DNA of 64,000 bases from Schmidtea polychroa (lineage: Eukaryota): contig CM097885.1 in the NCBI GenBank assembly GCA_044892525.1, positions 8,558,001-8,622,000 on the forward strand. The letters are read 5' to 3'. This document shows positions 6,112-37,142 of this stretch, in pieces. The notes beneath the pieces were generated by a model. It saw nothing but the letters and a program-made list of their open reading frames with translations. It ran no database searches and had not been told where the DNA came from. Each line of letters opens with the position of its first letter. Positions within the stretch are counted from its first letter, which is position 1. A program made the translations under genes and the position numbers.

Positions 6112-7566
6112 ATGTTTTCAAGCATATGGGAAATGATGAAGAGAAATAAATTTGAATTTGATAATGAAATCAGCAATGAATTGATGTGCAGAATTTGCAA
6201 ATGTTTAATGATAAAATCTTGCCAAGCTCCTTGCGGGTGTCACTTTTGTTCTGATTGCATTGAGCATTATTTGGAAGGAAAAGATAAATTCTGTCCAGGA
6301 GCAGCAAAATATTGTGAAGTTCTAACGATTCTTTTCACTAAAGATGTTTCTGTGGATCATTCAGTGAATTTAAAAATATCTGAAGTTATTGTAAAATGTC
6401 CAATGCAAAATTGTGAATTCAAAACCGAGTTGTGCATGATGGAGAGCCACATGAGAACATGCAACAAGCAGCCAATCAGATGTCCATTCAATAGAATTGG
6501 ATGTGAAATGAATGAGGTGGTAAAGGACGAAATGAAAGCCCATCTCAATGAAAACAATGAAGGCCACAGCAAATTATTGATTGATCAGACAAGTAATTTA
6601 TGCAATGAGATGCAAGCAATGAGAGATCAGAATATGAAATTGCGTAACGAAATTATCGAATTGAAAGGAGAAATGACGCAATTCAAACAACAATTTGATA
6701 AAATCAATGTAAATTTTATTTGTAATTGATTTAATTGTTATTTGTGATTGTAGGTGAAATTGCGCAATATTGAAAGGAAAGAGGTGGAGAACAGAGCAGA
6801 AATAGAAGAATTGAATGAGGAAATGGTGGCAGTGAAGAATGAGAATCGCTCATTGAGAATGGAGATTGAGACAAATATTGGATCGATCAATCAAGTTTGA
6901 TTATTGATTTGATTTATTATTGAATTTTTATTGATGCAAAGCAGGTCAGACAGCAAATTGAGGTGATTGAATCAAAATGTCAACAGCGGCTGCAACGGGA
7001 GAATGAAAAGGTGATTTATTGTTTTTTTTGAAATATTTGAATTTGAAATTCAGTTGCAGCTTGAAATGGCGAATGATGGCGCCAATGAAAATCGGCCGAT
7101 AAAAAGAAAAATAGCAAATGAAAAATATATAAATTATGGATTTTTGGAATGGCAAATCGATGAATTTTCACAACAAAAGAGAATAGAATGGATTTTCAGC
7201 GAGGCATTTTATTCCGGGCCAATCGGTTACAAAATGTGCTTGTGGGTGAGCATTGGGAGTTTTTATGTTTGGGTTGGTTTCTGTGTGATGCGTGGGGCAA
7301 ATGATGAGCAATTGGATTGGCCGTTCAATCAATCGGTGACAATCGATGTGATCGATCCAGCAAATGGCAGCATTTATATGAGCAAGTCAATGAAATATTC
7401 AGATCGCCCTGATGATGACAGATGGAAGAAACCGTCAAAGGACAGAAATATTCCAATTTTGATTTATGATGATGATGATCGCTCATACTATCCTTATCCT
7501 GATGGCTCAATCTATGAATTAGCAGCCAAAAATGATAAATTGCTGCTCAGGTGCAGAATTGAATAA
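6112..7566 (+). CDS. TRAF-family protein (RING, TRAF zinc finger, coiled coil, MATH domain); exons 6112-6708, 6754-6894, 6945-7010, 7054-7566
   Basis: RING CRIC..CGCHFCSDC..CP, zinc finger CP..CEF..HMRTC..CPF..GC, and MATH motifs FSEAFYSGPIGYKMCL and MRGANDEQLDWPF. Three phase-0 GT-AG introns (45, 50, 43 nt) keep the frame open. Confidence 0.9.
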
Positions 7567-9330: not shown

Positions 9331-10589
9331 AAAGTCATTTTATTATTATTATTACTATTTTTATTAATATTACTATTATTACTATTACTATTATTATTAT
9401 TATCATTATTATTATTATTATTATTATTGTTGATTATTGTAAATTAAAATAAAATTTAAATAAAATTTAGGCTAATAATTCAAATAGAAAGTAAACGAAG
9501 AAAAAAGACAAATAAAAGCGGGATCATGCACGGAATCAATAGTTAAGGAAAGTGTGATGGAAGCAGTATTAGAAAAGGCAAAAGCAATTACGAAAGGCAA
9601 GAATCCGGAAATCCGAGAAAAATCAATAAATGGTAAAATCATCGAAATTGAATGGGGAAAATGGGACAGGTATAGATTAGCTAATAGTCAACAAGATGAT
9701 GATTAAGGATTTATCAGAAAATGGTTAGGAAGGGTCGAAAAGCATTCAGTAGGTAGTTAGGAGCTTACGGCAGCAATAGGGGGGGGGGGTAAAAATGTTG
9801 CAAACTTTGGATTGCATAACTTTTTCCGTAGACATTTTTTGATTACATAATTGTTGCCACATGCTCCAATGATTTTTTTTCTGGGATTTTAAATACAAAA
9901 AATTTTTTTTTCAATAAACAAGCCAAGGATAAGTATTATTTGATTGGGTCTCCTTGATCCTGAGATTTTCAATAGAAAAAGGTAGTCTTCAATAAAAAAG
10001 CATGGATTTTTCAGACTATAGTGAGGGGATCTCCTTGGTCCTGAGAATTTCAATAGAAAAGGTGGTTTACATTAAAAACGCATAGTAAATTTTTAAAATA
10101 AAGCAAATTATGGGTCTAAAAATTGAATTACAGTAAAAAGGTTCAGATTTTTTTGAATTAAAGTAAATTATGGTCTAAATAAGTAAATTATGGGCTAAGA
10201 TTTTTGAATTAAAGTAATGAATGGGCTCAAATAACTAAATTAAGGTTCAAATTTTTAAATTAAAGTAAATAATGGTTCTAAAAAATTAAAATAAAGTAAA
10301 TTAAGGTCCTAAAAAATTAAAATAAAGTAATGAATGGGCACAAATAACTAAATTAAGGATCTAAAAAGTTAAATTAATTAAGTTAAAAAAATTAAGTTAA
10401 TTAAGGTCCAAATTTTAAAATTAAGTAATCAATGGTAAAAATTAAAGTTAAATAAGTAAATTAAAGTAAGATTTTTAAATTTATTAACAAAAAGTTGAAA
10501 TAATAGAAGGTGTTTGAGAATTGAAATTTTTTAATGAAAATTTTTAATGGAAATTTTTATGAAATATTTTTCATTGGTTATTTTTAATG

Positions 10590-10671
<82 letters not shown>

Positions 10672-10850
10672 ATATCAACCAAATACTATACAACACATAA
10701 AAAATTAACTAAACACATAAAAATAACTAAACACATAACAAAACATATAAACATTAACTAAACACATAAAAATGAATTAGACACATAAGAAACATAAAAA
10801 ATTACCAAACAAATAACAAATGCATAGATATAAACTTTTATTTAATAAAA

Positions 10851-13800
10851 TTAGTCCTCATCAGACAAAATAACGTCATCGATATCGATATCATCTTCTC
10901 CAAAATCTTCTCCAATATCTTCATTAAATTCTTCCTCATCTTCTCCAACATTTTCTCCAATATTTAATTCACTTAATCTTACATGCCCATATGCTAAACT
11001 AGTATTTTTCCCCACCCAAACCCTTTTGTCATCTGCGTTAGTGCTATTTTTGTGTTTTTAATTGTAAAAATTTGATGATTTTTGCTTGTTATATTAGTCT
11101 GAGGAACCGAAAAAATCTGGTTAGTGTTATAACAATCCAGGTATGACTGATGTTTTATGTCTCTACCTTTCAACGTTACACCTTTAGCCTTTTTTGTTTC
11201 CTCATCACCCAACAAGCTATAACATTTAGGTCTAAGAAAAACCCATTCCTTATATTTAAGACCTTTATTCTCGTCTTTGAACTTTCCAATGACAGAATCA
11301 AGGTTCTTACTATATAAGGAATGACAACTATTGTAATTGGAAGTATCTAATAAATTATCTCGAATCATTGCAGGTAAAAGAACCTCAAGTTTACAGTTAA
11401 TGACTTCGAGGAAAAAAGAATCTGTATCACCTGCAACGATATTAATTTTACAATTAAACTCATTGCGAAATGATTCCAGATCCTTATATTGCAATTCATA
11501 CATTCTTAGTTTAGATAGATCAAGTACAGATTGACCAATGTAACTTGGTCTATCTAAACATATAGAATCTGAATTCAATAATGCCGCGATTAAATTATCG
11601 TCTATTTTAATAGATTTTTTAAAAGTCGGCTTTGAAGAATATTTAACTAATTTACCGGCAGTTGTACAAACACGAAGATTCATTCTTCTCTTTAAATTTT
11701 CAACTGTTTTGCCGTATAAACTGTTATTTAACAATTTATAATAATTTTTATCTAAGTTATTTATGCTTTTTGACCTTAATTCTGTATTTGTATTTATATA
11801 TTTTTTAAAAATTGGAGATTGCTTAAATCTTACACCCCTATTTACACGTGTTACTTTAACACCAAGTTCCAAATATAATTTTAATAATCTCCAATGAATC
11901 ACATAATTAGATTTTGGAAGATGAGTTAATAATAATTTTTCAACCTTAGACCCAGCAGGTTTCATTTTTTCAGCAGCTACAGGGAAATCATTCAACTTAT
12001 CATGAAGCTCAGAAGGAATTACAAGATCAACTTCAAGAGTGTATCCATAAGACAAAGATTCAAGATTTAAATTCCTACATTCATCCATTATTAAATCAAA
12101 TCCATCAAGAACCCAACTAAATTCGCCACAAGGTAATGATTGACTTAAAGCCCAACCATAAAGATTATTAATATCTATATAAAGTAACTCGGTGTTCTCA
12201 TTGGTTTTTACGTAATGCTTATTCACAAAAGTAAGACCGCCTCTTATTCGACCCTCATAAAAGCTAAACATTTCGTTTTCAGTTATGAGCTCAATTGGTT
12301 CATTTAAAGACATTAATGCAGAAGACCAAGACATACCTGGAATTCCGAAATAATTCAATAGTTCCAATCTATTGTGAGCAATAGATTTCAACCGAAACTG
12401 ATGAAAGAAATCAGCCAAAAGAAAACAATCAAGTTTCAAGTAGATCATCATATAATCTAATAAAGTTACGCAATTAGTTTCTACCCAAATCTCCTGAGCT
12501 TTTTCATACTCAAGCTCAGTGACACCTTCCCAGATTGGTGGTAATTCATAAGTAGTTTGGAGAATATCTAAAGATGTAGCGAAATTATAAGGGAAGATTC
12601 CTTTTTCAGAAACTATAGTGCCAGAAAAAACAGAATTAGTAAAAGGCAAAGAATTCAAAGTTTTGACTGCTTTAGCTAAAGAATCATTGACAAATTGATA
12701 AGAATCAATGAATCTTAAGCTAATTTTGCCTAAATGAGCAATCAAAGAAATAAATTTTTCAGTCGTTATTGGGATGCAACCTAAAGTCCAATTTTTAAAT
12801 TTATTTAATCCATATTTAAGTATATGGTGCATATCGTATCCCTTCAAGTTGTGAAATACGATAAGCAAAATTTTTTTTATTTTCCTATTTATGTTACATG
12901 TGCTACAAGCTGCACCCAAGTATTTCCCCGTAAAATGATCGTGATCTCTAACAGGATCGACGATAGATTTCATACAAAGATAACAAACAGATGCACTAAC
13001 AAATTGACGTTGTTCAATTTTCGTTAATTTAATCATTGGTTTCCTACCCATTTTATAATAAAAAAGGAAGAACCTTATTTAATGCTATATCCTCTATAGC
13101 ACTTAAAAAACTCTCGACGCAATCTAAACCTATGAACTGTTGATATGATTTAGATCCGTCAAAGTTATTTACAAGTAAAAGACCAGCAGATATTGGCATG
13201 TGTCGTTGGAAATGAACATTATCAAAAGGTAAAATAGCCTCAAAATCGGCATAAACTACAAAAGGAGGAGTAACTGTTTTCAACCAGTGAGTAAACTGCA
13301 ATAATTTATTTTGAGGGAAAGTGTAAAGAGTTGTTCCTAATTGATTACGTTTACATAATATTTCATGTTTTTCCAGTGCGTGTTTATACCTAAACCCATT
13401 CAAACACCGATGGCACCATAATGATTGTATGCGTGTAGGATAAGTAGTGTTGATACCACAATTCAGTAACCTATTTAAATTACTTATAGCAACGTAATGG
13501 AAATTGTTTCCTTTATTCAATGGTAGTAAATTAATTACAGTTCCATTTAAAACTTTGGAACGATGTATAATGTCTAAATGTGGATGTTTTAATACATAAT
13601 TATCAGTTAATTGTTTGCTATTATCATATGAAAAAACATTAATTATTAAACCCGGATTTTTAGATTCAAATTTCTTAATGTCTTTTAATTTCATAGGTAA
13701 TTCTAACGGGTCGTATACTAAGTCAGATAAATTATAACTCGATGTCCTATTTCTAGCATAACTACTAACTTCATCATATTTTAAAATAGCTAAAATGCTA

Positions 13801-14703
13801 TATAAAAAACATGAATCATCAGTGTTTTTTATATTAATTAAACAATATTTATTTTTTAGATAAGTAGGTCTTTCAATGAAACTCCTACCACTTAATCTAC
13901 TTAACCTACTTATTTTTGTTATGGTGAAGTGGATTTCTGTTATATTTTTTATAATCCAACTACTTCCTAACTCGGTAATATTAATAATTTTCTCATTTAG
14001 TTCCTTAATGCCTTCATCAAAAAATGATGCAGTTAAAGGCTTTGCATAATTTGAGATATTATTAACCTTTATTTCCCCGTCTTTTTCAAATTCGATTGTT
14101 ATTCCGAATTGAATTTTGACGGAGTCTAATTCGTTAATAATATCTCGAAATTTTATAATTAATTGTTCAGGAAATATTATTTCCTTTATATTTAAGTCGC
14201 TAGTATTTAAACTTAATATTTGATGGGTACCCCTTAGATCTTTTAGTATTATGGGAACATTACCCCCTATTTGTATTATATTTAATCCATCCCAAGAATC
14301 AAAGGAAGTGAATAATCCATCATTGGATTCAACAACCAATCCGACCTGGGATTCAACAAAAGGCAATCCGACCTGGGATTCAACAACCAATCCATCATTG
14401 GATTCAACAAAAGGCAATCCAACCTGGGATTCAACAAAAGACAATCCGACCTGGGATTCAACAAAAGACAATCCGACCTGGGATTCAACAAAAGACAATC
14501 CATCCTGGGATTCAACCTCTAATCCGACCTGGGATTCAAAAGAAGAAGTATCTAATTTAATTTTTTTATTAGTAATATTTTTTTCTATAGTCAAAGGTCG
14601 TTTAAAAACAACATCTTTTTTAAAATTAAACATATCTAAATGATTTTTATGTTTATTATAAAAAACGCTATATGTTACAGGGTCACTAGTCTTACATACG
14701 GGA
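10851..14703 (-). pseudogene. Protein-primed family B DNA polymerase (pPolB), frameshifted, 5'-truncated at 14703
   Basis: Motifs YADFE (ExoI), HNLKGYD (ExoII), YIDINNLYG, KLLNNSLYGK, AGDTDS, and an endonuclease VII-like DHDH..G..C..CN insert. Frameshifts near 13060 and 11035. Confidence 0.92.
14310..14540 (-). repeat. Coding minisatellite of 24/27-bp units (FVESQVGLS), 9 units
   Basis: Directly visible. The inverted arm has 7 units at ~15440-15612. Confidence 0.9.
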
Positions 14704-17141
14704 ATTCTTTAATAGAAAACGTTATGAATGTTCGAGAAAAATTTCAGGAATTTGGTAAATTTTAATTTATTTATTAATTAATTTATTAATTAATTTATTA
14801 ATTAATTTAGATAATATTAATGAAGACAATTTAAAATCAAAGATTACAGGAAATTTGAAAAGAAAAAGTAAACATAATTTTTAATTTATTGATTTAATTA
14901 ATTAATAATTTAGGTAATACGAATAAAGAGAAAAATTATGTCAATGTGTCAATAAATCGAAATGAAAATTTACAATGTAAGTATTGATTACTTTTTTATA
15001 ATTTAAAGGAAATTTAATGTAATTTTTTATTTAAGTAAATGTTAATATTTTTAATTTAGTAAATTTTTATTTTTTAGTAAATAAAATTTGTAAAATAATA
15101 ATAATTTGCAAATTTTTGCGTAAACATTTATTAAAATATTTCATTTAAATTATATTTTTTTTTATAGGTATACTTTATCCAAATTATTGTTCATCGAAAG
15201 AACATGATAATAATTGCCATTCTATAATGGAGAATTATTATACGAAAAAATATTATAATAAAACTTATTTTATATGTCCCGTATGTAAGACTAGTGACCC
15301 TGTAACATATAGCGTTTTTTATAATAAACATAAAAATCATTTAGATAGGTTTAATTTTAAAAAAGATGTTGTTTTTAAACGACCTTTGACTATAGAAAAA
15401 AATATTACTAATAAAAAAATTAAATTAGATACTTCTTCTTTTGAATCCCAGGTCGGATTAGAGGTTGAATCCCAGGATGGATTGTCTTTTGTTGAATCCC
15501 AGGTCGGATTGTCTTTTGTTGAATCCCAGGTTGGATTGCCTTTTGTTGAATCCAATGATGGATTGGTTGTTGAATCCCAGGTCGGATTGGTTGTTGAATC
15601 CAATGATGGATTATTCACTTCCTTTGATTCTTGGGATGGATTAAATATAATACAAATAGGGGGTAATGTTCCCATAATACAAAAAGATCTAAGGGGTACC
15701 CATCAAATATTAAGTTTAAATACTAGCGACTTAAATATAAAGGAAATAATATTTCCTGAACAATTAATTATAAAATTACGAGATATTATTAACGAATTAG
15801 GCTCCGTCAAAATTCAATTCGGAATAACAATCGAATTTGAAAAAGACGGGGAAATAAAGGTTAATAATATCTCAAATTATGCAAAGCCTTTAACTGCATC
15901 ATTTTTTGATGAAGGCATTAAGGAACTAAATGAGAAAATTATTAATATTACCGAGTTAGGAAGTAGTTGAATTAAAAAAAATATAACAGAAATCCACTTC
16001 ACCATAACAAAAATAAGTAGGTTAAGTAGATTAAGTGGTAGGAGTTTCATTGAAAGACCTACTTATCTAAAAAATAAATATTGTTTAATTAATATAAACA
16101 ACACTGATGATTCATGTTTTTATATAGCATTTTAGCTATTTTAAAATATGATGAGGTTAGTAGTTATGCTAGAAATAAGACATCGAGTTATAATTTATCT
16201 GACTTAGTATACGACCCGTTAGAATTACCTATGAAATCAAAAGACATTAAGAAATTTGAATCTAAAAATCCGGGTTTAATAATTAATGTTTTTTCATATG
16301 ATAATAGCAAACAATTAACTGATAATTATGTATTAAAACATCCACATTTAGACATTATACATCGTTCCAAAGTTTTAAATGGAACTGTAATTAATTTACT
16401 ACTATTAAATAAAGGAAACAATTTCCATTACGTTGCTATAAGTAATTTAAATAGGTTACTGAATTGTGGTATCAACACTACTTATCCTACACGCATACAA
16501 TCATTATGGTGCCATCGGTGTTTGAATGGGTTTAGGTATAAACACGCACTGGAAAAACATGAAATATTATGTAAACGTAATCAATTAGGAACAACTCTTT
16601 ACACTTTCCCTCAAAATAAATTATTGCAGTTTATTGACTGGTCAAAAACAGTAACTCCTCCTTTTGTAGTTTATGCCGATTTTGAAGCTATTTTACCTTT
16701 TGATAATGTTCATTTCCAACGACACATGCCAATATCTGCTGGTCTTTTACTTGTAAATAACTTTGACGGATCTAAATCATATCAACAGTTCATAGGTTTA
16801 GATTGCGTCGAGAGTTTTTTAAGTGCTATAGAGGATATAACATTAAATAAGGTTCTTCCTTTTTATTATAAAATGGGTAGGAAACCAATGATTAAATTAA
16901 CGAAAATTGAACAACGTCAATTTGTTAGTGCATCTGTTTGTTATCTTTGTATGAAATCTATCGTCGATCCTGTTAGAGATCACGATCATTTTACGGGGAA
17001 ATACTTGGGTGCAGCTTGTAGCACATGTAACATAAATAGGAAAATAAATAAAAAAAGGAATCTTCCCTTATAATTTCGCTACATCTTTAGATATTCTCCA
17101 AACTACTTATGAATTACCACCAATCTGGGAAGGTGTCACTG
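14703..17141 (+). pseudogene. pPolB 5' part (plus arm) with three upstream phase-1 micro-exons
   Basis: Near-identical to the minus arm. Exons ..14754, 14811-14867, 14914-14976 and 15168.. splice in frame. Lesions are a TGA at 15968, frameshifts, and a ~265-bp deletion at ~17055 that removes ExoII. Interrupted at 17141 by the viral insertion. Confidence 0.85.
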
Positions 17142-17323
17142 TGTTTGCGGTGTGCTTCTCTTTATGAACTTGGGAAATGGGGGGGGGGGCGTCGGGGGGC
17201 TCCTATATCTATAGCACGCCATGGCGTGCTTATTAATAAACCATGGTTTATTATGAGATATAGGGGCCCCCGACGCCCCCCCCCATTTCCCAAGTTCATA
17301 AAGAGAAGCACACTGCAAACACA
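17140..17323. repeat. Left terminal Y-shaped hairpin
   Basis: A ~70-bp stem (TGTGTTTGC..CCTATATCT / AGATATAGG..GCAAACACA) encloses two palindromic arms, AGCACGCCATGGCGTGCT and TAATAAACCATGGTTTATTA. Confidence 0.95.
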
Positions 17324-17741
17324 TGACTGCGTGGGAGTTTATAAAACATATATAGTAAAGTACAGGCAGATGCGTTTTCCAAGAATGGCATAGTAATAAA
17401 TGCCTTTACTTTACTATAATATTTTTAATGATGAGTCATAAAACAATGACTGCGTGGGAGTTTATAAAACATATATAGTAAAGTACAGGCAGATGCGTTT
17501 TCCAAGAATGGCATAGTAATAAATGCCTATACTTTACTATAATATTTTTAATGATGAGTCATAAAACACATTAATCAATAATATATAAACACACTAACTC
17601 GTTTATCTATCATTTACAAATGAATAAGAGTTTATAAAACATATATAGTAAAGTACAGGCAGATGCGTTTTCCAAGAATGGCATAGTAATAAATGCCTTT
17701 ACTTTACTATAATATTTTTAATGATGAGTCATAAAACACAA
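17323..17741. repeat. Three copies of a ~120-bp sub-hairpin ITR unit (single inverted copy at ~22855-22978)
   Basis: Near-identical units, each with an 18-bp inverted repeat, a GGCAT-N8-ATGCC stem-loop and ATGAGTCAT. Confidence 0.93.
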
Positions 17742-17765
17742 AACTAAAATTTATTAAATAACAAA

Positions 17766-20642
17766 TTAAGTGTCCGAAAATCCTGCACGCATACCAAAAT
17801 TAGTCCAGTGTGGTTTCTGAAATCTTGCGACATTATGTTTTACCATGGGAAATATGTCATCTTCTGTTGGTGTTTCGTCAGACCGAATCCAATAATAAAA
17901 CGGTGTACAATAAGGAACAGATGGAGTCATCCATTTAGTTGTTGGCTGCCACCATAAACCGTCTTTACTCTGTAATTCTTCTTTCGAATATATTCGACGA
18001 ATATTAATAGCTGGAATTTTCCCATACATTTCTATAGTATACGATATCTTCCAATTAAATGTGCAAGTTAATTGAATTTGATTTCCACTAGGACCAATTA
18101 TAGTATTAAGTTTAATGAATAGCGTAGGCATGGGATTATGTTCAGATACATCAGGGGCTTCTCAAGTTTTACGATATTCGTCGACAGCTATAGCTTCTTC
18201 TGTAAACCATCTATCAGCAAGTTCTGACTTATCTGCAGGCTTCATTTTTTTATGAACTGTATTGATCGTAGCTGCAAAATCATAAGTCACATTAGAATCA
18301 GCATATTTTCTAGTCCATTTATGATATCGAATTTTAGAAGGATAAGGAGCAACTCGTTTATCAGAAGTTCGAGTACTTCTTCCTAACGCACACATGTAAC
18401 TAAATGGTTTAACTACTTTACAATTAAAATAATCAAAGCGATTCCAAAATACTGGATCTGTATCTTTTAAATTGGGATCTGCCAAATCAGTTCTTTGATG
18501 CCACATTTCTGTAATATACCTGGGATATTTAACTTTCGATGCTGTATAATCATACTCAATACTTTCTCCAGTATTACAATTAATAATTTCAACTTCCGGA
18601 CATGTCTCACATATATATATCCATCCTGCTTTAGGCAACATTTGAGGTGTTAATTTAGACAATTGATTATTGACATTATAACCATTAAGTAAACTGGCTT
18701 CATTCAAAAAATAGTCTTTATAGGCTTTTGCTTTATTTTCGGGCATAGAACAGGGTCCGAATATATTCGCAGTGTCTTTATAAACCAACATTTCAACCTG
18801 ATTTTGTAATCCAGAAAAATTTTGTGGAGATGTTTCCCCAACGACCTGAATATTGAAGATTTCGTAGTGCATTGAGACTGGTTTCCACCATAAATATCTT
18901 TCCATTGCAGACCACAAATCCGGGTTACCGAACATAATATGAGGATAATAATATTCGAGCGGAATATTGTGCCATTCGCTTTGTTTGGTGGTGCCGATGC
19001 AAGAAGCTCCGCAATTGGTAGAGGTGAATTGCAAAGAGGTACCATCAAGGCTGGGTCGGAAGTCTCCTTGAGAATGTCTGAGTATTCCATTACCTCCACC
19101 AGAGCCGGGGACCCCAGAGGATGGGACAACGGGAGGAGCAGTTGTTGTTGACATTTCATGAACAGAAGAAATGATTTCTTTAATAGCTTGTTCAGTATAT
19201 AAGGACCCTCGTGTGCTCTCAACATGCTCTTTATGGCTATCTAGTATATGATTGGTTAATTCTTTATGATGTAATCTATTACGCACATCTACAGATAATT
19301 TCTTTGGCATCCGACGCACATATTCTTTAAGTTGTTCCTGTGTTGCCAATTTCCAGTCCTCGTGTTGATGAGATTGATGATGATTTATTTGATAGTAATA
19401 TTTTAATATCTGTAAATTTATCCTATTTAATTTCCGATCATGTAACATGTGATCATCAGGACCGTTACGATTGTACCATGTTTGGGCTATTTTATTATTT
19501 TTAATACTATGCAAATATGCGGTGAATTTATCATTTACATCTAATTTAGTTAATGATTTAATAGGGAGTTTTCGTGGTAATCGTCTTGTACTAGGATTCC
19601 AATAATGTCTGAATACTGTAGTTGTCCACTTGAATTGATTTTTACCATCAGGTGTCCATGCATACCATGAATTAGGTTCACTAGGATTATATGTTTGATA
19701 TGGATTTATCTTTTTGTGTTCCTCTGGTGTACGTAATATAAGATGTTCGTATAATTCTTTTTGAGGATCTTTTGAATCAAATTTAGGTAACTCCATTAAA
19801 TAATGCGTTTGAAACATGGCAGAAGTTAGAAATTTTGTAATGTTACCTTTGGAAGTTTCAACAAATTGCTCTAACATTCCTGGATTGTCATTAAAAGCTT
19901 TTCTTAATACATAATTATTATCGATTATTTCCTTTTTTATATCATTCTTATTCCACGGTATATTTACATTAGAATAACCATATAATTTTAACGCATTTAC
20001 ATAATATTTGGCTTTAGCTAAAAAGTATTCATATTGCTTACCAAACAAATTAGGGACATCTTTTGGCAATGGATTTTCGAAATTCTGATAACGATGAAAT
20101 TCATCTAAGATATTTTCTTCGGGAGACAAGTATTCGCTATAATCGAAATACCCATGATGTTCGCTTAAAGGCTTAAGATTATTCATTTCTTCTTCTGAAT
20201 ATTTTTCATATATATGTTCTCTTGGGTCCGGTAATACATATTCTTTATCAATAGATTCTTTTAAATGTTCTCCTATTACATCACCAGCTTCTACTAATCC
20301 TAGTATTGCAGCATCACTCATATTACCCCATTTAGATATTACTTTAGTATAAAAATTTTTACTTCTAAATAATGTAATAATTTTAGTAATTTGTGGATTG
20401 ATATATTTTCTATTTAAAAAATTAGTTATATTAGAGGTAAACTTTTGATTTAATGTAAGTGGCTTAAATAATTCACTAGTAAGAGATTTAAATGAATTCG
20501 AATGATATAATGGATTAAAACCAGAAGGTCTTTTCATGTCTGCTTGTAATTTTGTAATAAATTTTGATACATGTGGTTGTATAACCTGACTGTATAATAC
20601 AAATAACCTTTCACCAGCATTTATATAAGGAGAATTTGGCAT
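17766..20642 (-). pseudogene. Parvovirus-type capsid protein (VP) with one in-frame TGA at 18162-18164
   Basis: Gly-rich SSGVPGSGGGNG, then WKPVSMHYEIFNIQV (cf. parvoviral RPKxMxVKIFNIQV) and HNPMPTLFIK (cf. HPPPQIFIK). ORFs 18162..20750 and 17766..18131 are in the same frame, 10 codons apart. AATAAA lies just after the stop (17750-17755, minus). Likely major-VP ATG at 19154; the VP1 start is uncertain (20642, 20537 or later). Confidence 0.85.
18704..19225 (-). CDS. Overlapping alternative-frame ORF (173 aa) across the presumed major-VP start
   Basis: ATG-initiated and open for 173 codons in AT-rich DNA, with a hydrophobic stretch NIIILILCSV. Position resembles AAP/SAT. No sequence family recognised. 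Confidence 0.4.
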   Translation of the reverse strand: MLRAHEGPYILNKLLKKSFLLFMKCQQQLLLPLSHPLGSPALVEVMEYSDILKETSDPALMVPLCNSPLPIAELLASAPPNKANGTIFRSNIIILILCSVTRICGLQWKDIYGGNQSQCTTKSSIFRSLGKHLHKIFLDYKIRLKCWFIKTLRIYSDPVLCPKIKQKPIKTIF

Positions 20643-20644
20643 AA

Positions 20645-21944
20645 AATTTTTATAAGCGATCTCATAAACAACGATTATCCCGCGTACATAAAGTCTATAG
20701 CGACAGTGAAGAGCGGGGAAGCAGTGTATCTTCCGTATTGTCTGGCACATCTGTGTCCGATCTGCGAACTCCTACAAAGACTAGTTCGGTATCTAAAATC
20801 AAGCGATCTTCTAAGCACGTTTCCCGTAAACATAAGGCAAGGAGACACAATGATTCTGAGCATTGTGATATACCAGCTGTCAAAGCTGTTGATCAGTTGG
20901 TTTCAGATAATAAAACTCAAAATAATCATCAGGAACGATCAAGAAGATTTAACTCCTTCAAGTTCCAAGTATCTGTTACAAAATATCGATCTCTGGAGCC
21001 GGAACTTAAAAAACTCATGGAGGACAAGTCCTTTACAAGATTCGTTATCGGTCAAGAAGAGGAAGGTGATAATGGATATCACCATATGTAAATGTATTGG
21101 GAGGTATTATTATATTTATTCAATTTAGCTATTAATGGAATAAATATGATAATTACAGATTTACAACAACATGTCTATATATGCCTTTAGGGCAAAAACG
21201 GATATTCCCTTTGTCAGAGGAGTCCCAGGAATCGAACGGCAGTCCGCTATCGACTATGCAACAAAATCTGAGACAAGAGTTGCAGGAGGATTATCTGTAA
21301 ATATTGGGACTCAAAGTAAATACAATTGTGCATCTAATATAGATTATTTCAAACAAGCACTGAATTCTGCCTCGATGAAAGATGGATTAAATATTCTTAT
21401 GCAACACGAAGCTTTTCACTACACAACAAAGAGAAAAACCATAATGGAAACTTTCGTAAATAAATTCGGTCAATCAACTATGCCAAATTTTAATGACAAT
21501 TTTCTAATTGATAAAATAAATTTATTGGATTGGAGAAGCCACGTGTTTGTAGGAGAATTTGGCATAGGTAAAACCAATTTCGCCTTATCACATTTTAAGA
21601 ATCCGGTGCATTGTAAACACCTTCAAATGCTTAACAGAATTTCGGATAATGTTGATAAATGCGACGGAGTAGTGTTCGATGATCTTTATTTCAACAAAAC
21701 TCGAATAGAAGAATTTCTTTCGTTGGTAGATTGTGCATACGAGAATGTCATAAATATCAAATATTCGGTAGCTGTAGTTCCAAAGGGATTGTCCAGAATA
21801 TTTTGTATAAACGATTTGGACTTATTCTATCCAGAATGTATTTCACCAACAATAATGGAAGCTATACATAGAAGAATTAAAATTCATCATTTCCGAGGCA
21901 GAATTTTTAAAGAATACAAATCTGAACAAGTAAAATTTTTATAG
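20645..21944 (+). pseudogene. CRESS-DNA-virus-type Rep (HUH endonuclease + SF3 helicase), intron 21104-21158, one TAA at 21089
   Basis: Motif I-like FKFQV, then VIGQEE..GYHHM*MYWE (motif II HxQ if TAA was CAA), motif III IDYATKSETR, Walker A GEFGIGKT, Walker B VVFDD, motif C IFCIN and Arg finger AIHRRI. A 55-nt phase-0 GT-AG intron joins the frames. No in-frame ATG found; the frame is open from 20645. Confidence 0.85.
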
Positions 21945-22135
21945 TATTATTTATTAAATTAATATTAGACAATGAAACACCCGTATCAGATACAGAACCA
22001 ATGTCCCAGCCAAAATGTCGATTCCTCAGTATCCAGTGCAAATCCTGTATGAAATTCATGCGTATTTACTTGGGAGTGTGCAATAATAGTTTTTAGTGTT
22101 TAGTATATAATAATAAATGTTTTAAATAATAAATG

Positions 22136-22804
22136 TTAAAAGAAATTCTTTATTTTATCAAAAATATCATACTTAACATCATTCAATACATTTATATCTT
22201 CAAATACATTTATATGAGTATTAAATTCGTATGGTTTTTCTACAACGATATATAGAGAACGATTTTTAAGAGCTTGTTCATGCTCAGAGGCATATTTCCA
22301 TATAGGATGATTATTGGATATTATACAAGGGCAATTACTTAGTTCAATTTTTGAATCACCTTTACGAAAAACTTTTAGAAAAATATTACCTTCACATAAT
22401 AACTTTAATAAATTAACATTTTTGAAATCGCAATATATTTCTTCACCAATGATAATCTCTTTTCCGACACAGTCATCGAAACAAAATTCACTTTGAGTTT
22501 GTGCACCAGTAAAGAATCCATGTTTAAGTGTCCCACGACAAATTGCAGTAAATAATGTTTTCCCACCGTTACTTACTCCTTCTAATATAATGGTCTTGGT
22601 CTTTCCGGCTTGAGATGATAAGATTGTATATATCCCAAGAAGACGACGAATATATTTTTCATTTTCTTTAGGGATAATATGACGATTCTCAGAAATAATT
22701 TGATTAATTTGTCTATTGTGATCGCTGTTAAAATGGAAATTGTTGTTATTAATAAAAGCTTCCATAAAAGTTGATAATTCATTGTATAGTAATAGCTTAT
22801 TCAT
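22136..22804 (-). CDS. Stand-alone parvoviral NS1-type SF3 helicase (222 aa, no endonuclease domain)
   Basis: GKTKTIILEGVSNGGKT, EFCFDDCVGKEIIIGEE (cf. NFPFNDCVDKMVIWWEE), LKLLCEG..VFRKG and PCIISNN. Intact ORF with TATATAAA ~35 nt upstream of the ATG, next to the right ITR. Confidence 0.9.
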   Translation of the reverse strand: MNKLLLYNELSTFMEAFINNNNFHFNSDHNRQINQIISENRHIIPKENEKYIRRLLGIYTILSSQAGKTKTIILEGVSNGGKTLFTAICRGTLKHGFFTGAQTQSEFCFDDCVGKEIIIGEEIYCDFKNVNLLKLLCEGNIFLKVFRKGDSKIELSNCPCIISNNHPIWKYASEHEQALKNRSLYIVVEKPYEFNTHINVFEDINVLNDVKYDIFDKIKNFF

Positions 22805-22977
22805 TTGTAAATGATAGATAAACGAGTTAGTGTGTTTATATATTATTGATTAATGTGTTTTATGACTCATCATTAAAAATATTATAGTAAAGTAAAGGCA
22901 TTTATTACTATGCCATTCTTGGAAAACGCATCTGCCTGTACTTTACTATATATGTTTTATAAACTCCCACGCAGTCA

Positions 22978-23148
22978 TGTGTTTGCAGTGTGCTTCTCTT
23001 TATGAACTTGGGAAATGGGGGGGGGGGCGTCGGGGGGCCCCTATATCTCATAATAAACCATGGTTTATTAATAAGCACGCCATGGCGTGCTATAGATATA
23101 GGGGCCCCCCGACGCCCCCCCATTTCCCAAGTTCATAAAGAGAAGCAC
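22978..23148. repeat. Right terminal Y-shaped hairpin (inverted copy of the left, outer end truncated by about a dozen nt)
   Basis: Reverse complement of 17140-17323 with only a few substitutions and G/C-run length differences. Confidence 0.95.
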
Positions 23149-24811
23149 TCAGGAGATTTGGGTAGAAACTAATTGCGTAACTTTATTAGATTATATGATG
23201 ATCTACTTGAAACTTGATTGTTTTCTTTTGGCTGATTTCTTTCATCAGTTTCGGTTGAAATCTATTGCTCACAATAGATTGGAACCATTGAATTATTTCG
23301 GAATTCCAGGTATGTCTTGGTCTTCTGCATTAATGTCTTTAAATGAACCAATTGAGCTCATAACTGAAAACGAAATGTTTAGCTTTTATGAGGGTCGAAT
23401 AAGAGGCGGTCTTACTTTTGTGAATAAGCATTACGTAAAAACCAATGAGAACACCGAGTTACTTTATATAGATATTAATAATCTTTATGGTTGGGCTTTA
23501 AGTCAATCATTACCTTGTGGCGAATTTAGTTGGGTTCTTGATGGATTTGATTTAATAATGGATGAATGTAGGAATTTAAATCTTGAATCTTTGTCTTATG
23601 GATACACTCTTGAAGTTGATCTTGTAATTCCTTCTGAGCTTCATGATAAGTTGAATGATTTCCCTGTAGCTGCTGAAAAAATGAAACCTGCTGGGTCTAA
23701 GGTTGAAAAATTATTATTAACTCATCTTCCAAAATCTAATTATGTGATTCATTGGAGATTATTAAAATTATATTTGGAACTTGGTGTTAAAGTAACACGT
23801 GTAAATAGGGGTGTAAGATTTAAGCAATCTCCAATTTTTAAAAAATATATAGATACAAATACAGAATTAAGGTCAAAAAGCATAAATAACTTAGATAAAA
23901 ATTATTATAAATTGTTAAATAACAGTTTATACGGCAAAACAGTTGAAAATTTAAAGAGAAGAATGAATCTTCGTCTTTGTACAACTGCCGGTAAATTAGT
24001 TAAATATTCTTCAAAGCCGACTTTTAAAAAATCTATTAAAATAGACGATAATTTAATCGCGGCATTATTGAATTCAGATTCTATATGTTTAGATAGACCA
24101 AGTTACATTGGTCAATCTGTACTTGATCTATCTAAACTTAGAATGTATGAATTGCAATATAAGGATCTGGAATCATTTCGCAATGAGTTTAATTGTAAAA
24201 TTAATATCGTTGCAGGTGATACAGATTCTTTTTTCCTCGAAGTCATTAACTGTAAACTTGAGGTTCTTTTACCTGCAATGATTCGAGATAATTTATTAGA
24301 TACTTCCAATTACAATAGTTGTCATTCCTTATATAGTAAGAACCTTGATTCTGTCATTGGAAAGTTCAAAGACGAGAATAAAGGTCTTAAATAAAAGGAA
24401 TGGGTTTTTCTTAGACCTAAATGTTATAGCTTGTTGGGTGATGAGGAAACAAGAAAGGCTAAAGGTGTAACATTGAAAGGTAGTGACATAAAACATCAGT
24501 CATACCTGGATTGTTATAACACTAACCAGATTTTTTCGATTCCTCAAACAAAAATAGCAAGCAAAAATCATCAAATTTTTACAATTAAAAACACTAAAAT
24601 AGCACTAACTAACAAAGATGACAAAAGGGTTTGGGTGGGGAAAAATACTAGTTTAGCATATGGGCATGTAAGATTAAGTTATTTAAATGTTGGAGAAATT
24701 GTTGGAGATGAATTTGATGAAGAAGATGTTGGAGAAGATATTGAAGAAGTTGTTGGAGAAGCTGATATTAATGACATTATTTTATCTGATAAAAATTGTT
24801 TTATTAAATAA
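23148..24811 (+). pseudogene. pPolB 3' part (plus arm), nonsense at 24392
   Basis: Resumes the pPolB sequence right after the virus. Motifs YIDINNLYG, KLLNNSLYGK, AGDTDS and DDKR..AYGH. Confidence 0.92.
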
Positions 24812-24970
24812 AATTTTATATCTTTACTTTTGTTCTTTATATGTGTTTGGTAAATTTTTATGTTTGTTATGTGTCTAGTTATTTTTATGTGTTTAGTTAA
24901 TGTTTAAATGTTTTGTTATGTGTCTAGTTATTTTTATGTGTTGTATAGTATTTGGTTGAAATATTATTAC

Positions 24971-25021
<51 letters not shown>

Positions 25022-25950
25022 AATTATTATTATTATTAATCTATAAAAAAAAATAACTTAAAAAAAATTTACTTAAAAAATTATTCCATTAAAATTTTCA
25101 TTTAAAATTATCCTAAAAAAAAATTATTATTTCATTAAAAAATTTCAATTCTCAATTACTGAATATTATTCCAACTTTTTGTTAATAAATTTTAAAATTT
25201 TACTTTAATTTACTTATTATATTACTTATTTAAAAATTATTACATTAATTTACTTATTTAAAAATTTTGACCATTGATTACTTAATTTTTCAATTTGGAT
25301 CTTAATTAACTTTAATTTTATATTTTAGACATTAATTTACTTTAATTTAAATTTTTAGAATCTTACTTTACTTATTTGAGTCTTAATTAACTTTAACTGA
25401 ATAAATTTAGACCTTAATTAACTTTAATTTTAAATTTTAGACCATAATTTGCTTGAATTCAAAAATTACCATGATTTTTTAGTGTAAACCCCCCCCCTTT
25501 TTATTGAAAATCATAGGACCAAGGTGACCCCTCATTATAGTCTAAATAATTCCATGCTTTTTAGTGTAGACCACCTTTTTCTATTGAAATTCTCAGGACC
25601 ATCGAGACCCCCTCACTATAGTCTGAATAATCCATGCTTTTTTAATGATAGCCGGATTTTGTATTGAAATTCTCAGGACCAAGGAGACCCATCCAAATAA
25701 TACTGACTTATCCTTGGCTTTTTGTATTGAAAACAATTTTTCTATTGAAAATCCCAGAAAATAAAATCATTGGAGCGTACGGGAACAATTATGTAATAAA
25801 AAAAATGTCTACGGCAAAAGTTATGCAATCACAAGTTGCAAAATTTTTTACCCCCCCCCCCCTCTATTGTTGCCGGGAGCCCCTAACTACCTACTTATAT
25901 ATATAAATAAGTCTAATAACTTCATTTACAACATTCACAAATATTCATCG

Positions 25951-26519
25951 ATGTCTTCAAACGATCCACAGGTTTGATGTTATAATTATTTAGTAATTTA
26001 ATTATTTTAAATAAGGTACAAGAATTGTCTATTGATTGGGATCATTCTTTTTTAATAATAGATAAATTTCTAACAATAAATGATGAAGATTATATATTCC
26101 TGGCCAAAATAAATAAATCTTTCAAACATTAAGTAATTCAAAATCTATTTGATAAGTTCGACTTCAATATGTCGATGTTGAAATTAACCAGCTGTATATT
26201 ATCTATAAATAATATTAACCATACAGAAATTAACACGCTTAAGGTTTTCTGGATATGTATGGATTTCAGGTTCCGAAAATATCGCGAGCTTATTGAAATC
26301 TTCCTTCTTAATGCATATAAACTTGGTATTACAATACATAATTTACTGAATGAAGTCAGAAAACAGTTTATTACATGTTGTATATGTCGAATTCGAGAAG
26401 TTTCTATTCTATATCTGCCTTGTGGCCATATCATTATTTGTTCCTTATGTTTGAAAAACTGTAGTAGATGTCAGAGTTGTGGTGTCATAATCGATGAATC
26501 TCATTCAGTGTATTTTTGA
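25951..26519 (+). pseudogene. Protein with a C-terminal IAP-type RING finger; intron 25972-26015; in-frame TAA at 26130
   Basis: CCICRIREVSILYLPCGHIIICSLC..CQSC..VYF-stop matches the IAP/MDM2-like terminal RING pattern. TATA at ~25897. No BIR domain recognised. Confidence 0.7.
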
Positions 26520-26542
26520 AATAAATGTTGTAAAACTCCTAC

Positions 26543-26654
<112 letters not shown>

Positions 26655-26673
26655 CATTATTATTATTATTATA

Positions 26674-26729
<56 letters not shown>

Positions 26730-26922
26730 ATTTCAACTTTCTATCACAAATCATGGTTAACTAAAAACATAGTCGATTATTATAAAATTTATAACACAAA
26801 AGTTATACCATAAAAAGTTGACAAACAAAAATAACTAAATATTTACAAATTTTTATTCAACATCGTATTTACACAAATATATATATAATCACAATGTTAA
26901 ATAATTGGCCCAAATTATAACT

Positions 26923-27190
26923 TTAAATTATTGAGTTGAATATTTGATTGAATTGTTGATCTCGAATGACAGGATCCGTTTCAGGAATAACGATATTACC
27001 ACTACCATCTAAGACATCGACCCCTCTATAATGTTCATATGCAAAACTTGAGTTTTTCCCTACCCAAGCTCTCTTATCGTCGTGATTATTTAAAGCTATT
27101 TTTGAGTTTTTAAAAGTAAACAGCTGATGATTCCGGGTTCCTATTCTAGTTTGAGGAACCGACATGTCTGTGTTGTTGTTATAGCAGTCA
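26923..27190 (-). pseudogene. pPolB C-terminal fragment fused to truncated major capsid
   Basis: DCYNN..VPQTRIGTRNHQLFTFKN.KIAL..DDKR.WVG aligns with the C-terminus of ORF 34106..35989. Confidence 0.88.
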
Positions 27191-27739
27191 GACCTTTTCA
27201 GTCTAATATGTACACTAACTCCCGGAAGTAAATATTTCGGTTGATCCATAAAATCGAGTTGTAATGATGAGCACATGGTGAAAACCTTTGAGACTTTAAC
27301 CCACATTTTTTCTTTCATCATCTGCTGCTGCATAACTCATAGGAGTAAGACATGTATTTTTAGTATCGGAATTGTAATTTAAAATAGTTTTTATTAATGC
27401 CTTGTGAATGAATGTATTATTTCCACTCTCAATCTTGATATTATTAAATCCCAACACTGCATCTTTAAACAGAGTATGAAACAGGAAATTGTTCGGTATT
27501 ACATCTGCATTGGCATCCAAAACTTTTCTATCTTTATCTACAACCTTGATCTGAACAGTCAATAAAGTATCGTTCAAATCTAAATATTCAGTTTGCGAAC
27601 CAGTAATATAAAACTCTTTATCATTTCTACTATCGGTAATTGAATTCATAAGAAAAACTTCCTCAAAAGCCCCAAATTCTATTACAGCCTGGGGCGATGG
27701 TCTATCAAATATACATAATTCAGATTTACCACAAATCAT
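27191..27739 (-). pseudogene. Polinton major capsid protein (double jelly-roll), N-terminal part
   Basis: KSELCIF..P.Q, EFYI.G..YLDLNDT.L, HTLF, IKTILNY..DTK, and after a frameshift DQPKYLLPGVSVHIRLKRS; all typical of Maverick major capsid. Confidence 0.85.
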
Positions 27740-28104
27740 TTTGAAATATTAGTTCCATGTCCTTTCATTCGTTTGTTTATACGTGATATTCCATGTCTTT
27801 TACGTTTTGGAGCTGGGGCTGGGGATGGAGGCGTATCTTTTTGAAACATACCTGCAACCCCGGGTAGAACCTTCCCTAACTCAGCTAAAGCATTTGTTTT
27901 TAGGGATTGTAATATTTTCTGTTCATTCATAATCACGTCTTTAGTAGTTTTCATGCCAAAACTACCAATACGTTTAAGAATAGGAAGTGCAAATCTCCCT
28001 ATTGTTTTTAACCAACCTGATCCGTACTGTTTACCAACGAAGTATGGTAATTCACCGCCAGATTGGCTATCACTATACATACTAATAATATCGGAATTAG
28101 CCAT
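27736..28104 (-). CDS. Conserved small Polinton virion protein (QSGG site, amphipathic helix, basic tail)
   Basis: QSGGELPYFVG.QYGSGW..IGRFALPILK, lying between the minor and major capsid genes with overlapping start/stop codons. Confidence 0.7.
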   Translation of the reverse strand: MANSDIISMYSDSQSGGELPYFVGKQYGSGWLKTIGRFALPILKRIGSFGMKTTKDVIMNEQKILQSLKTNALAELGKVLPGVAGMFQKDTPPSPAPAPKRKRHGISRINKRMKGHGTNISK

Positions 28105-29113
28105 CTACTTTACGAAAATGTAATGTCAAATGAGTTTTTGAACCTTTTGGAAAGTTTATAAGTTTTCCACTATCATCACGAATATTTATTTCTATATTGT
28201 TTATACATGAACTTGCTATTGGTAAATACATGGGATTATCGATATTTATATTGAAAACTTCATCATGTTCATATCTACCAATCCATACCGATTTCAAAAA
28301 AGGAACACTGGAATCACCAACAGTTATGGGTTCGATAATGTTAGTATATATGAACATTTGTTGATGATGTTCTAGTATTATTGGTTTGCGTATACCAGTC
28401 GATTTTTCTCGATATTTTTGCCTATCTAATCCAAGTGAATTTGCCAAATTTTTATCAAATGTAACTTCGCAAATATCATCATTCAAACTGAAGGTAAACA
28501 TTAAATCTTTCACAATTTCCAAATTTTTAAATATGTGTGAACAATTGAACTTTAAATATTTAAGTAAATCATCAAGTTTATCAAAATATAATTCATCAGC
28601 AAAGGTAAATGATTCTTCAACTTCATTATTATACGACACAGATATTTTGATTTCTTCTTTCACTATACTGTTTGCTTCAAATAGATTAAAACGTAATAAA
28701 TACTCGGTCTCCGTAACAATATTTTTCAACTTATTGCAACCCATTCGTTTGGCATCTTCAATAGTTTCGAATGTTATTGCAAATGGTTTAAAATCACAAC
28801 TGATATTTAATCCATCCTTGTAAAACATATAGCAATGAGAATCTAATATTTGATTCGGAATATGATATGTTTTATCATAATTACTGATAACAAAGATACC
28901 GCTACATGTTTTCACAATATTCCTTTTGAAATCAATCTTACATTGACTCTAAAATGGGAATGTGTTGTACACGAATGTAAAATCTTGCAGTGCAACTTCC
29001 CAGTCCCCATTTAAAGAAATCGGATTCTGGAGGTTGACCATGAATTTGCTGGCTTGATTATCTGGATGAATTAATGGACAACTATTGCTCGGCAAAATAG
29101 TATAAAAATTCAC
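28097..29113 (-). pseudogene. Polinton minor capsid (penton) protein, one in-frame stop at 28949
   Basis: N-terminal FYTILPSNS..PDN..F..L..PISLNGDWEVAL and C-terminal IYTNIIEPITVGD..P..PMYLP..IEINIRD..G..LTLHFR. The two ORFs are in the same frame. Confidence 0.85.
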
Positions 29114-29739
29114 TTTATTAGGTCTTTTGCTGATATCCATGACGGGTTTTGATAACCATGCCATTTGACATAGTATTGTTTATCCTTGCCGACCTTTTTA
29201 GTTAACAATATATTTTTTGAATTCTAAATACTTTTGGGGGAGGAATGACTTGTAATTCCTGCTCATAAAATTTCCCTTGTACAATATTATTATCATTATC
29301 TTTGATGACATACATTACAGGATTCTGTTTAGTATTTATTTTTGAAATTACAAAGACTTCATCACTCCAATTTGTATCAAAATTTTTAATAAATGGTGAT
29401 GCACTAATTTTACTAATTCTAACATGGTAACCGACTTTATATTTAGGTTTTGCAATTTTTACAGATTTTTTAGAAGTCAATGATGTTTTTGATGTAATAT
29501 CAACCGGTCTCAATCCATTCAGTCCTCGATGTGATGAATGATTATAACTTGTTAATATTTTCGGTAAAACATTTACCCATTTTTTATTACCTTGATGCAC
29601 GAACAATTTCTTTAATCTATCTCTCAATGTTCGATTTAATCTTTCAACATGGGCAGCTTTTATTGAGAATGTACCGAGTAGTGATTTATTTTCAGTTTAT
29701 CGAGGATTTGCTTAACTTTGCTATTGTAGAACTCTTTAC
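29110..29739 (-). pseudogene. Retroviral-like (rve) integrase 3' exon with C-terminal chromodomain, frameshifted
   Basis: After the acceptor TTTTAG (29740): GKEFYN..KAAHVERLNRTLR..YNHS.H..KYKVG..VRISK..NWSDEVF..GKFYEQELQ, then YYVKWHGY..SWI. Confidence 0.88.
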
Positions 29740-32617: not shown

Positions 32618-33142
32618 AGTAGGTGGTTTGGGCACCGGGAAAACAGGACTCCGGGAGCACAGTACCCCCCCCCCCCCCCCGGGGGAAAAAATTAAAAAAA
32701 ATTTTTTTTTCAAGGTCAACTTGAGAACAAAGACAATGAGTCATCCGATGACTCATCACTCGTCTAGAACAAAGACAATGACTCATCCGATGACTCATAA
32801 AAAATTATTATTATTTTTCAAAAATATTATTATCTGTGCTCGCGGAGTTCTACTTTTCGTCAGCCCAAAACTTAGTCTAAATCTCAAAATATTTTAACAA
32901 TTTATAGTTCATTTTGAAGACCAGACGAAGACAAATCTTTTGAGCCATATAAATAATTTTTATCATTAGTAGTATAAAAGTTATTAATTTTTTAGTCAGA
33001 CACTAATTTATAGCAAATTTATAGCAAATTTTATGAAGAAATTTGCGGGTGATTTATCATTCACCCAATCAGGTAAGACTTTAATTTTATGAAGAAATTT
33101 GCGGGTGATTTATCATTCACCCAATCAGGTAAGACTTAAATG

Positions 33143-33143
<1 letters not shown>
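32618..33143 (+). repeat. Left TIR of element C (~525 bp plus (TTA)n)
   Basis: Inverted copy of 41358-41884 with about 6 substitutions counted by eye. Contains a C-run, four ATGA(G/C)TCAT sites and a ~56-bp tandem duplication. Confidence 0.95.
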
Positions 33144-33189
<46 letters not shown>

Positions 33190-33214
33190 AAAGTTTTAAC
33201 AAGTTTTAACAAAG

Positions 33215-33304
<90 letters not shown>

Positions 33305-34105: not shown

Positions 34106-36142
<2,037 letters not shown>

Positions 36143-36527: not shown

Positions 36528-36585
36528 TACAACAAGAAGATTTAAAATTAAATTTAATGTCGGGCAATGAAGGATTAGCACCCAT
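36358..36585 (-). CDS. Small ORF overlapping the integrase start, with an N-myristoylation signal
   Basis: MGANPS (Gly2, Ser6), SSCC, then a basic stretch. ATG lies 3 nt after the upstream stop. Confidence 0.45.
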   Translation of the reverse strand: MGANPSLPDIKFNFKSSCCNGEDLEEPRRRSRFRWSGKIKEKSSEFEKRNPEVVIRSACVQFEQTNAEKISNKSV

Positions 36586-36588
36586 TGT

Positions 36589-37124: not shown

Positions 37125-37142
37125 TATTATTCATAGAGGTTT

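Follow-up and report, generated by a model that had tools for sequence, protein, structure and literature searches.

Krupovic and Koonin (2014) proposed that the Bidnaviridae arose from the integration of a parvovirus into a Polinton scaffold; the capsid genes of the scaffold were lost afterwards, and the NS1 nuclease was lost as well (PMC4061559). In the same account bidnaviruses possess a stand-alone helicase and terminal repeats without hairpins, and their polymerase (PolB) is elsewhere placed in the Alpha class (PMC8502044, PMC11071296, PMC11161782). Here we analyse a stretch of 64,000 nucleotides from Schmidtea polychroa (assembly GCA_044892525.1, contig CM097885.1, positions 8,558,001 to 8,622,000, forward strand), which we call the window and by whose positions all features are given. 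It contains a linear virus genome of 6006 nt (17142-23147), integrated and inactive, inside the protein-primed DNA polymerase B (pPolB) gene of a palindromic Polinton-derived element (9748-25895). We found no earlier report of a parvovirus-like genome inside a Polinton in the literature covered, which did not extend to subscription papers.

Several planarian systems invite comparison with the virus itself, among them PEVE from Girardia tigrina and PIVE from Schmidtea mediterranea. PEVE reportedly has two unique regions flanked by inverted repeats, an arrangement not seen in the window virus, and a 2002 abstract is said to give it a circovirus-like Rep plus a second helicase. PIVE is integrated in many copies, and both PEVE and PIVE resemble the window virus, likened by description only, in a parvovirus NS1-like gene and in terminal inverted repeats (PMC3198968). 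Parvovirus dugesia6041 (BK066653) is a linear sequence of 5710 nt from Dugesia japonica RNA-seq, and an 'auxiliary CressRep' group of parvoviruses, with a Rep of the type found in circular Rep-encoding single-stranded (CRESS) DNA viruses, includes Parvo3071 and Parvo3960; 'endogenized' planarian entries stand on record there as names only (Buck et al. 2024, PMC11071296). As to the way into a host genome, vectors of adeno-associated virus (AAV) are described as being joined to breaks and to palindromic sequences through trimmed inverted terminal repeats (ITRs), by way of microhomology (PMC8793687).

Structure of the insertion

The extent of the insert follows from a comparison of the two arms of the host element. 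The right arm tracks the intact left arm up to position 17141 (corresponding to 12517), and the match resumes at 23148 (corresponding to 12498), with the virus in between. Exactly 18 bp of the host are missing (left-arm 12499-12516), which correspond to codons 188-194 of the left-arm frame 13078-10994, and zero bases of the target are duplicated. This bears out an earlier reading of the letters (hereafter the sequence-only reading), which had described a virus inside a Polinton pPolB gene that replaces 18 bp without target-site duplication; its boundaries of 17131..23160 have to be drawn in, the unambiguous insert being 17142-23147. The interrupted pPolB gene of the right arm consists of a 5' part (15277..17141, plus strand) and a 3' part (23148..24811, plus strand; stop at 24392-24394; DNA_pol_B_2 E 5e-20). 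Its uninterrupted mirror image in the left arm (10851..14708, minus strand; DNA_pol_B_2 E 2e-30) is frameshifted near 13065 and near 11040. The same right arm lacks a further 265 bp (left-arm 12606-12870), deleted at 17052/17053 with an overlap in an A-run, 90 bp before the left viral junction.

At both ends the virus is trimmed within the outer stem of its T-shaped hairpin; under exact pairing, the cut on the right lies 8 nt nearer the hairpin tip than that on the left. Host and virus share 2 nt at the left junction (17140-17141) and 1 nt at the right (23148), just as the sequence-only reading had it when it placed both junctions in the hairpin stems with a microhomology of 1-2 nt. These microhomologies are at chance level: random pairings of host sequence and viral stem gave a microhomology of 1 nt in 46% and of 2 nt in 18% of cases. 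A bulged likeness of 6 nt at the left junction is rarer, being reached by 734 of 105,705 random pairings (0.7%).

Contigs from three of four sequencing runs (X1, X7 and X8) depart from the window sequence after 17141, or join it at 23148, and there carry bases resembling the 18 bp that are missing; the empty site is therefore the normal state of this Polinton family. Viral contigs identical to the window are present in runs X1 and X5. Among the matches listed from the sequencing runs no contig spans a virus-Polinton junction, and the junctions rest on the assembly. Contigs of run X8 cover the Polinton but not the virus, an absence that proves nothing. A contig joint between 23139 and 17441 is best taken for a copy of the hairpin stem that has diverged.

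The host site has a feature that the sequence-only reading had not seen. In the intact arm, the empty target site (12494..12519, minus strand) is a perfect inverted repeat of 8 bp around a loop of 10 nt, in which 12494-12501 pairs with 12512-12519, and the lost 18 bp end in both of its arms: the two host breakpoints oppose each other across the stem with a stagger of 1-2 nt. This hairpin folds better than all of 200 shuffles on either strand, and it is the most stable 30-mer of the 3.7-kb pPolB gene, its level being reached by 3 of 3637 30-mers, all of which overlap the site. On both strands of 5.5 kb it ranks second among windows of 26 nt, joint first at 30 nt and sixth at 40 nt; its level is reached by 12 of 5504, 4 of 5500 and 44 of 5490 such windows, respectively. 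In stability the host hairpin thus belongs to the top 1% of sites of the element. Of the 3649 possible 18-nt deletions in the pPolB gene, 35 would end in both arms of a stem of at least 8 bp.

Gene content of the virus

The virus begins and ends with hairpins. The left terminal palindrome (17140..17323) folds into a T-shape with two short arms (z -20.9, reached by none of 200 shuffles), and the right one (22990..23148; z -15.6) is the left hairpin inverted; the G-runs within the hairpins vary in length between copies. Inside the left palindrome follow three copies of an inner terminal-repeat unit of about 111 nt (17324..17740, minus strand), the middle one of which holds the leader and first codons of the helicase gene at the right end, and was therefore copied from there. 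Three tandem copies of 109 nt also lie behind the Rep gene of a related metagenome locus, L001 (L001:3146-3482).

A weak stem-loop of 5 bp at 22897..22914 (plus strand) carries TATTAC in its loop. It is repeated once in each left inner unit (17387-17404, 17510-17527 and 17680-17697, minus strand). TATTAC is a nick motif of CRESS viruses, and the stem-loop is a candidate nick site for Rep; it occurred in 42 of 2000 shuffles, and 20 of 200 shuffles fold as well (z -1.4). An 18-nt motif of the terminal repeat was tried as a means of finding relatives and dropped: it matched 22 viral contigs, but relatives are encoded on none of these and the matches are put down to chance.

The capsid gene (17766..20771, minus strand) encodes about 450 residues of unassigned fold, with no match in Pfam or in the Atlas, followed by a parvovirus-type jelly roll. 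A stop interrupts it at 18162-18164, and homology to the proteins P0002, P0004, P0005 and P0006 continues across this stop; P0002 is 28% identical to the window capsid (E 5.7e-15). Judged by a structure model of low confidence (pLDDT 40.8), the protein answers to a parvovirus-type single jelly roll: all Foldseek matches listed are capsids of the parvovirus family (best E 7.5e-7), the Atlas lead is 0.95, and in VIA-align 19 of 48,161 chains reach a Z of at least 8, all of them parvoviral (best Z 12.9, root-mean-square deviation 5.0, 223 residues aligned). A model from the single sequence (pLDDT 31.9) was useless and was discarded. The fast protein search yielded no capsid relative among 7672 candidates, and the capsid alignment gave no usable pattern.

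A CRESS-type Rep (20645..21944, plus strand), with HUH nuclease motifs I-III and a superfamily 3 (SF3) helicase, is spread over two frames joined by a predicted GT-AG intron of about 55 nt near 21104-21158, which a sequencing run guessed to be RNA crosses without a gap. Its first frame matches the N-terminus, i.e. the start of the nuclease, of the L001 Rep (E 1e-6), and the L001 Rep as a whole is 33% identical to that of the window (E 3e-31). The second frame is closest to P0001, a Rep of 345 aa with 40% identity, whose own matches to Viral_Rep and Gemini_AL1_M are weak and below the cut-off. In the window copy a stop lies within motif II (21089-21091) and no methionine precedes motif I, the first one following it. 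One contig carries 937 extra nt at 20651/20652, where the Rep frame of the window opens, and on this evidence the window copy has probably lost its Rep start.

The third gene (22136..22804, minus strand) begins 45 nt from the right terminal repeat and encodes an NS1-like helicase of 222 aa with no nuclease domain (Parvo_NS1 E 8e-13; AAV Rep40 helicase E 6.5e-4). None of 200 candidates in the fast protein search proved a relative of this helicase, and IMG/VR held no relative of Rep or helicase. Both viral stops, in Rep and capsid, are present in X1 contigs with 0 differences from the window; the viral copy is therefore a fossil, a decayed genomic copy. Further copies exist in the genome, as contigs about 89% identical over Rep and capsid and as deleted forms; no further viral piece was found in the rest of the 64-kb window.

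The host element and its surroundings

The element that received the virus has Polinton-type ends and two head-to-head pPolB copies around a spacer of about 570 nt. It has no 6-bp target duplication, its flanks differ, and no integrase, packaging ATPase or capsid gene was found among its frames of at least 60 aa. The polymerase is a protein-primed PolB (PF03175, 106 bits). Among the 8 of 116 matching places listed, the two proteins labelled PolBa share its motifs; this comparison, by motif and with PolBa only, suggests that it may be of Alpha type. The Beta class, suspected earlier from the moderate Pfam score, was dropped after the shared motifs had been found. Searches of the host pPolB against phage records and solved structures gave no match. 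A zinc motif like that of endonuclease VII (PF02945, below the cut-off) occurs in both pPolB copies (16111-17073 and 10994-13078). With Polintons or Mavericks that carry pPolB of the Alpha adintovirus type (PMC8502044), the element shares the DNA_pol_B_2 match and terminal repeats that start with AG, but unlike them it is a palindrome whose only genes are those of the polymerase, and it lacks the duplication, the integrase and the capsid genes.

The arms of the element differ by 1.0-1.1% inside and by 10-13% in the outer 1.3 kb, a pattern that suggests homogenisation of the arms or a recombinant of two elements. An artefact of reads folding back on themselves was considered for the big palindrome and is ruled out by these differences. 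The arms also share 5 of 12 listed alleles that depart from the family majority.

Elsewhere in the window, a divergent neighbour Polinton (32618-41884; pPolB 69% identical) has a 6-bp target duplication, an integrase and a packaging ATPase, and includes a small TBP-like gene at 37842-38306. In a deleted Polinton fragment (26133-29696), which adjoins a RING-finger frame, the C-terminus of a pPolB is joined to frames that resemble an integrase, a penton and a truncated capsid gene; the labels other than RING and pPolB were assigned by eye. A U-box/TRAF-MATH gene is present twice, in decayed or spliced form, at 6070-7566 and 42827-43627, and a host AAA ATPase gene of the Vps4/katanin type at 54971-57354 (minus strand).

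Mode of insertion

Polinton DNA is abundant here. It makes up 22,597 of the 57,994 non-viral bases of the window (39%, with intervals chosen by hand), and in contigs its depth exceeds that of the virus by two to three orders of magnitude in both X1 and X5: in X1 the summed contig depth, which is not copy number, is 1.2e5-1.1e6 at the Polinton places listed versus 95-227 for those viral contigs that are identical to the window, and in X5 it is 6e3-1.6e5 versus 17-36 for viral contigs. An expansion of Mavericks in Dugesia genomes is described in a preprint (10.64898/2025.12.11.693146). Co-replication or helper dependence, which the sequence-only reading had raised as a possibility, finds no support, as Polinton DNA is so abundant that one landing needs no preference. 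On present evidence the Polinton is probably not a chosen target: the place is suggestive but probably unselected. Of three related metagenome loci, only L001 has long flanks, and its Rep lies inside a non-long-terminal-repeat (non-LTR) retrotransposon; the other two are too short. The retrotransposon that surrounds this CRESS-type Rep (L001:491-4594) includes an Ulp1-like protease.

On balance we lean towards capture of the virus by host repair at a hairpin-associated break or a stalled fork, in Polinton DNA probably through abundance. The host hairpin would have formed on single-stranded DNA, at a fork or a resected end in the 10-kb palindrome, and would have been cut across or have stalled synthesis; a genome-length virus molecule would then have been patched in by microhomology end-joining, and would later have decayed by stops and the probable loss of the Rep start. 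End-joining, which the sequence-only reading had proposed, fits junctions without target duplication and the reports on junctions of AAV vectors. Rep-independent integration of such vectors (PMC8793687) resembles the window case in that the ITRs are trimmed and contain the junctions, the microhomology is short, host bases are lost and nothing is duplicated; it differs in that here a natural virus entered the germ line or a stem-cell lineage, and in that the host stem has only 8 bp.

A number of points weigh against this reading. The palindromes reported for AAV have arms of about 20 bp or more, compared with 8 here, and 17 other places in the window fold equally well as the host hairpin or better. 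The hairpin statistic is post hoc and comes from one event; a second type of pPolB lacks the hairpin, which is also partly broken in family copies of X1 and X7. Two X1 contigs link Polinton to virus elsewhere, from 15426 to 17745 and from 22129 to 23758 (the lengths of the sides were not seen), and these joints may have come about by chance, by deletion within this locus, or through additional insertions into Polintons. Finally, end-joining and template switching leave the same junctions.

Template switching is unlikely in our view, if the least so of the alternatives. On a replicating Polinton, a polymerase copying single-stranded DNA would have halted after three bases of the hairpin and moved, by way of the bulged 6-nt likeness, onto the viral hairpin stem as its template; once the entire virus had been copied it would have come back on the facing arm, and the hybrid would then have integrated; if true, this would imply co-replication in one nucleus. 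Breakpoints that face each other across the stem with so small a stagger are what such a switch would leave, the bulged likeness is as rare as given above, and the viral left end itself shows copying from the right end. Polintons have moreover been proposed to replicate via single-stranded intermediates (PMC4061559). However, a host fork accounts for the same geometry, and the element has no target duplication, so that a fresh integration of the hybrid lacks a trace. An allele private to the right arm has a depth of 219.8 at 16238, compared with 167-227 for window-identical viral contigs; the private allele and the virus being of equal depth, there is no sign of a hybrid multiplying.

Pure chance, i.e. 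a random break that was end-joined and happened to fall in a hairpin in a Polinton, would agree with microhomologies at chance level and with a single event judged by a post-hoc statistic. It is nonetheless decidedly unlikely, given that such geometry occurs in about 1 in 100 random 18-nt deletions.

Integration directed by Rep, in the manner of AAVS1, we consider improbable. Here the CRESS-type Rep of the virus would have nicked a host stem-loop resembling its own origin, followed by a strand switch. The TATTAC stem-loop does lie in the terminal repeats, on the strand that terminal resolution would nick (by a strand logic that has a 1-in-2 chance of agreeing), and of 9 bases around the viral loop 7 recur on one strand of the host loop, at a place that the deletion covers. 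A likeness of 7 out of 9 is, however, reached by 4.9% of the 12-mers in the gene; the viral stem-loop is weak, its motif is one known from CRESS viruses, and the putative nick sites of virus and host both lie away from the junctions.

It is very improbable that the assembly collapsed a Polinton palindrome and wrongly placed in it a viral sequence that was free or came from elsewhere: palindromes and hairpins are hard to assemble, hairpin G-runs differ between copies and no listed contig match spans a junction, but the arms differ by 1% and by indels, a single gene runs on in register from one flank to the other, short of exactly 18 bp, the viral stops recur unchanged in X1 contigs as in a decayed genomic copy, and the right-arm allele has the same depth as the virus.

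Comparison with known systems

The virus is a hybrid of parvovirus and CRESS Rep and not a classical parvovirus. With the Parvoviridae it shares a linear genome in the range of 4-6 kb with terminal hairpins (here 6006 nt, with a T-shaped hairpin at either end), but the nuclease, which in parvoviruses is united with the SF3 helicase in a single NS1, resides in a separate Rep. With the Cressdnaviricota it shares a Rep with HUH motifs I-III and an SF3 helicase, though broken in the window copy; in place of a circular genome it has two inverted hairpin termini. The combination of VP, auxiliary CRESS Rep and parvovirus-class NS1 on one linear genome is that of the CressRep-bearing parvovirus group (Buck et al. 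2024), with Parvovirus dugesia6041 compared by eye. As far as described, dugesia6041 and this group have in common with the window virus a parvovirus-type VP, a CRESS-type Rep, a helicase-only NS1 of about 225 aa and an overlapping frame in Rep; further shared motifs with dugesia6041 were seen by eye, and P0002 and the L001 Rep, which match the window capsid and Rep, resemble dugesia6041 by eye as well. The window virus is distant from it, in a kinship judged by eye: its helical region at the position of 'Cah' is in frame with VP, an intron is predicted in its Rep, and both hairpin termini are kept in a copy that is broken and lies integrated in the host. We conclude that the window virus is genuine, a well-preserved endogenous representative of a group of viruses that is known but has hardly been described.

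From the Bidnaviridae the virus differs in two traits. It has no pPolB of its own in place of a nicking endonuclease (there is none in 17142-23147, and Rep is present), and its termini are hairpins; by its gene layout it does possess a stand-alone SF3 helicase. The locus is outside the Bidnaviridae and outside the Parvoviridae in the strict sense.

The significance of the locus is that it provides a concrete case of a parvovirus in a Polinton, an arrangement only postulated in the favoured scenario for bidnaviruses, and one with partners of fitting type: a stand-alone helicase, a parvoviral capsid and a pPolB that is probably of Alpha type. The hairpins of both termini and a candidate origin are also retained, for a group that has hardly been described and whose linear genome is served by a Rep of CRESS type. 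Further diverged copies in the genome make a preference for Polintons, hairpins or neither countable; if there is no preference, we are dealing with an ordinary endogenous viral element in a repeat-rich genome. A far-reaching possibility, to which we give little credence, is that Polintons, as they replicate, capture viruses of this kind (hairpin-ended, with a helicase-only NS1 and a swappable initiator module) via template switching at hairpins on the single-stranded intermediates of the Polintons, that palindromic polymerase-only Polintons with a spare pPolB act as nurseries for bidnavirus-like chimeras, and that this locus would be the first intermediate to be seen.

The sequence-only reading regarded the locus as a snapshot of the kind of encounter that the bidnavirus scenario requires. 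As an analogy this is fair, and closer than that reading could tell, with regard to the stand-alone helicase, the PolBa-like motifs and the second pPolB; however, the virus is a CRESS-Rep/parvovirus hybrid and the insertion destroys the pPolB that it hit. Like the hypothetical precursor of the Bidnaviridae, the locus combines a parvoviral capsid and a stand-alone SF3 helicase with pPolB within Polinton ends, in which the Polinton capsid genes are absent, and the host element has a spare second copy of pPolB. In contrast to that precursor, it does not, judging by the available evidence, come from an arthropod, the virus retains hairpins and a Rep of its own, the insertion has destroyed one pPolB and the other is frameshifted, and the whole, 16 kb in length, gives no sign of mobility. 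The locus is best understood, by this comparison, as an analogue of the proposed bidnavirus intermediate and not as an ancestor.

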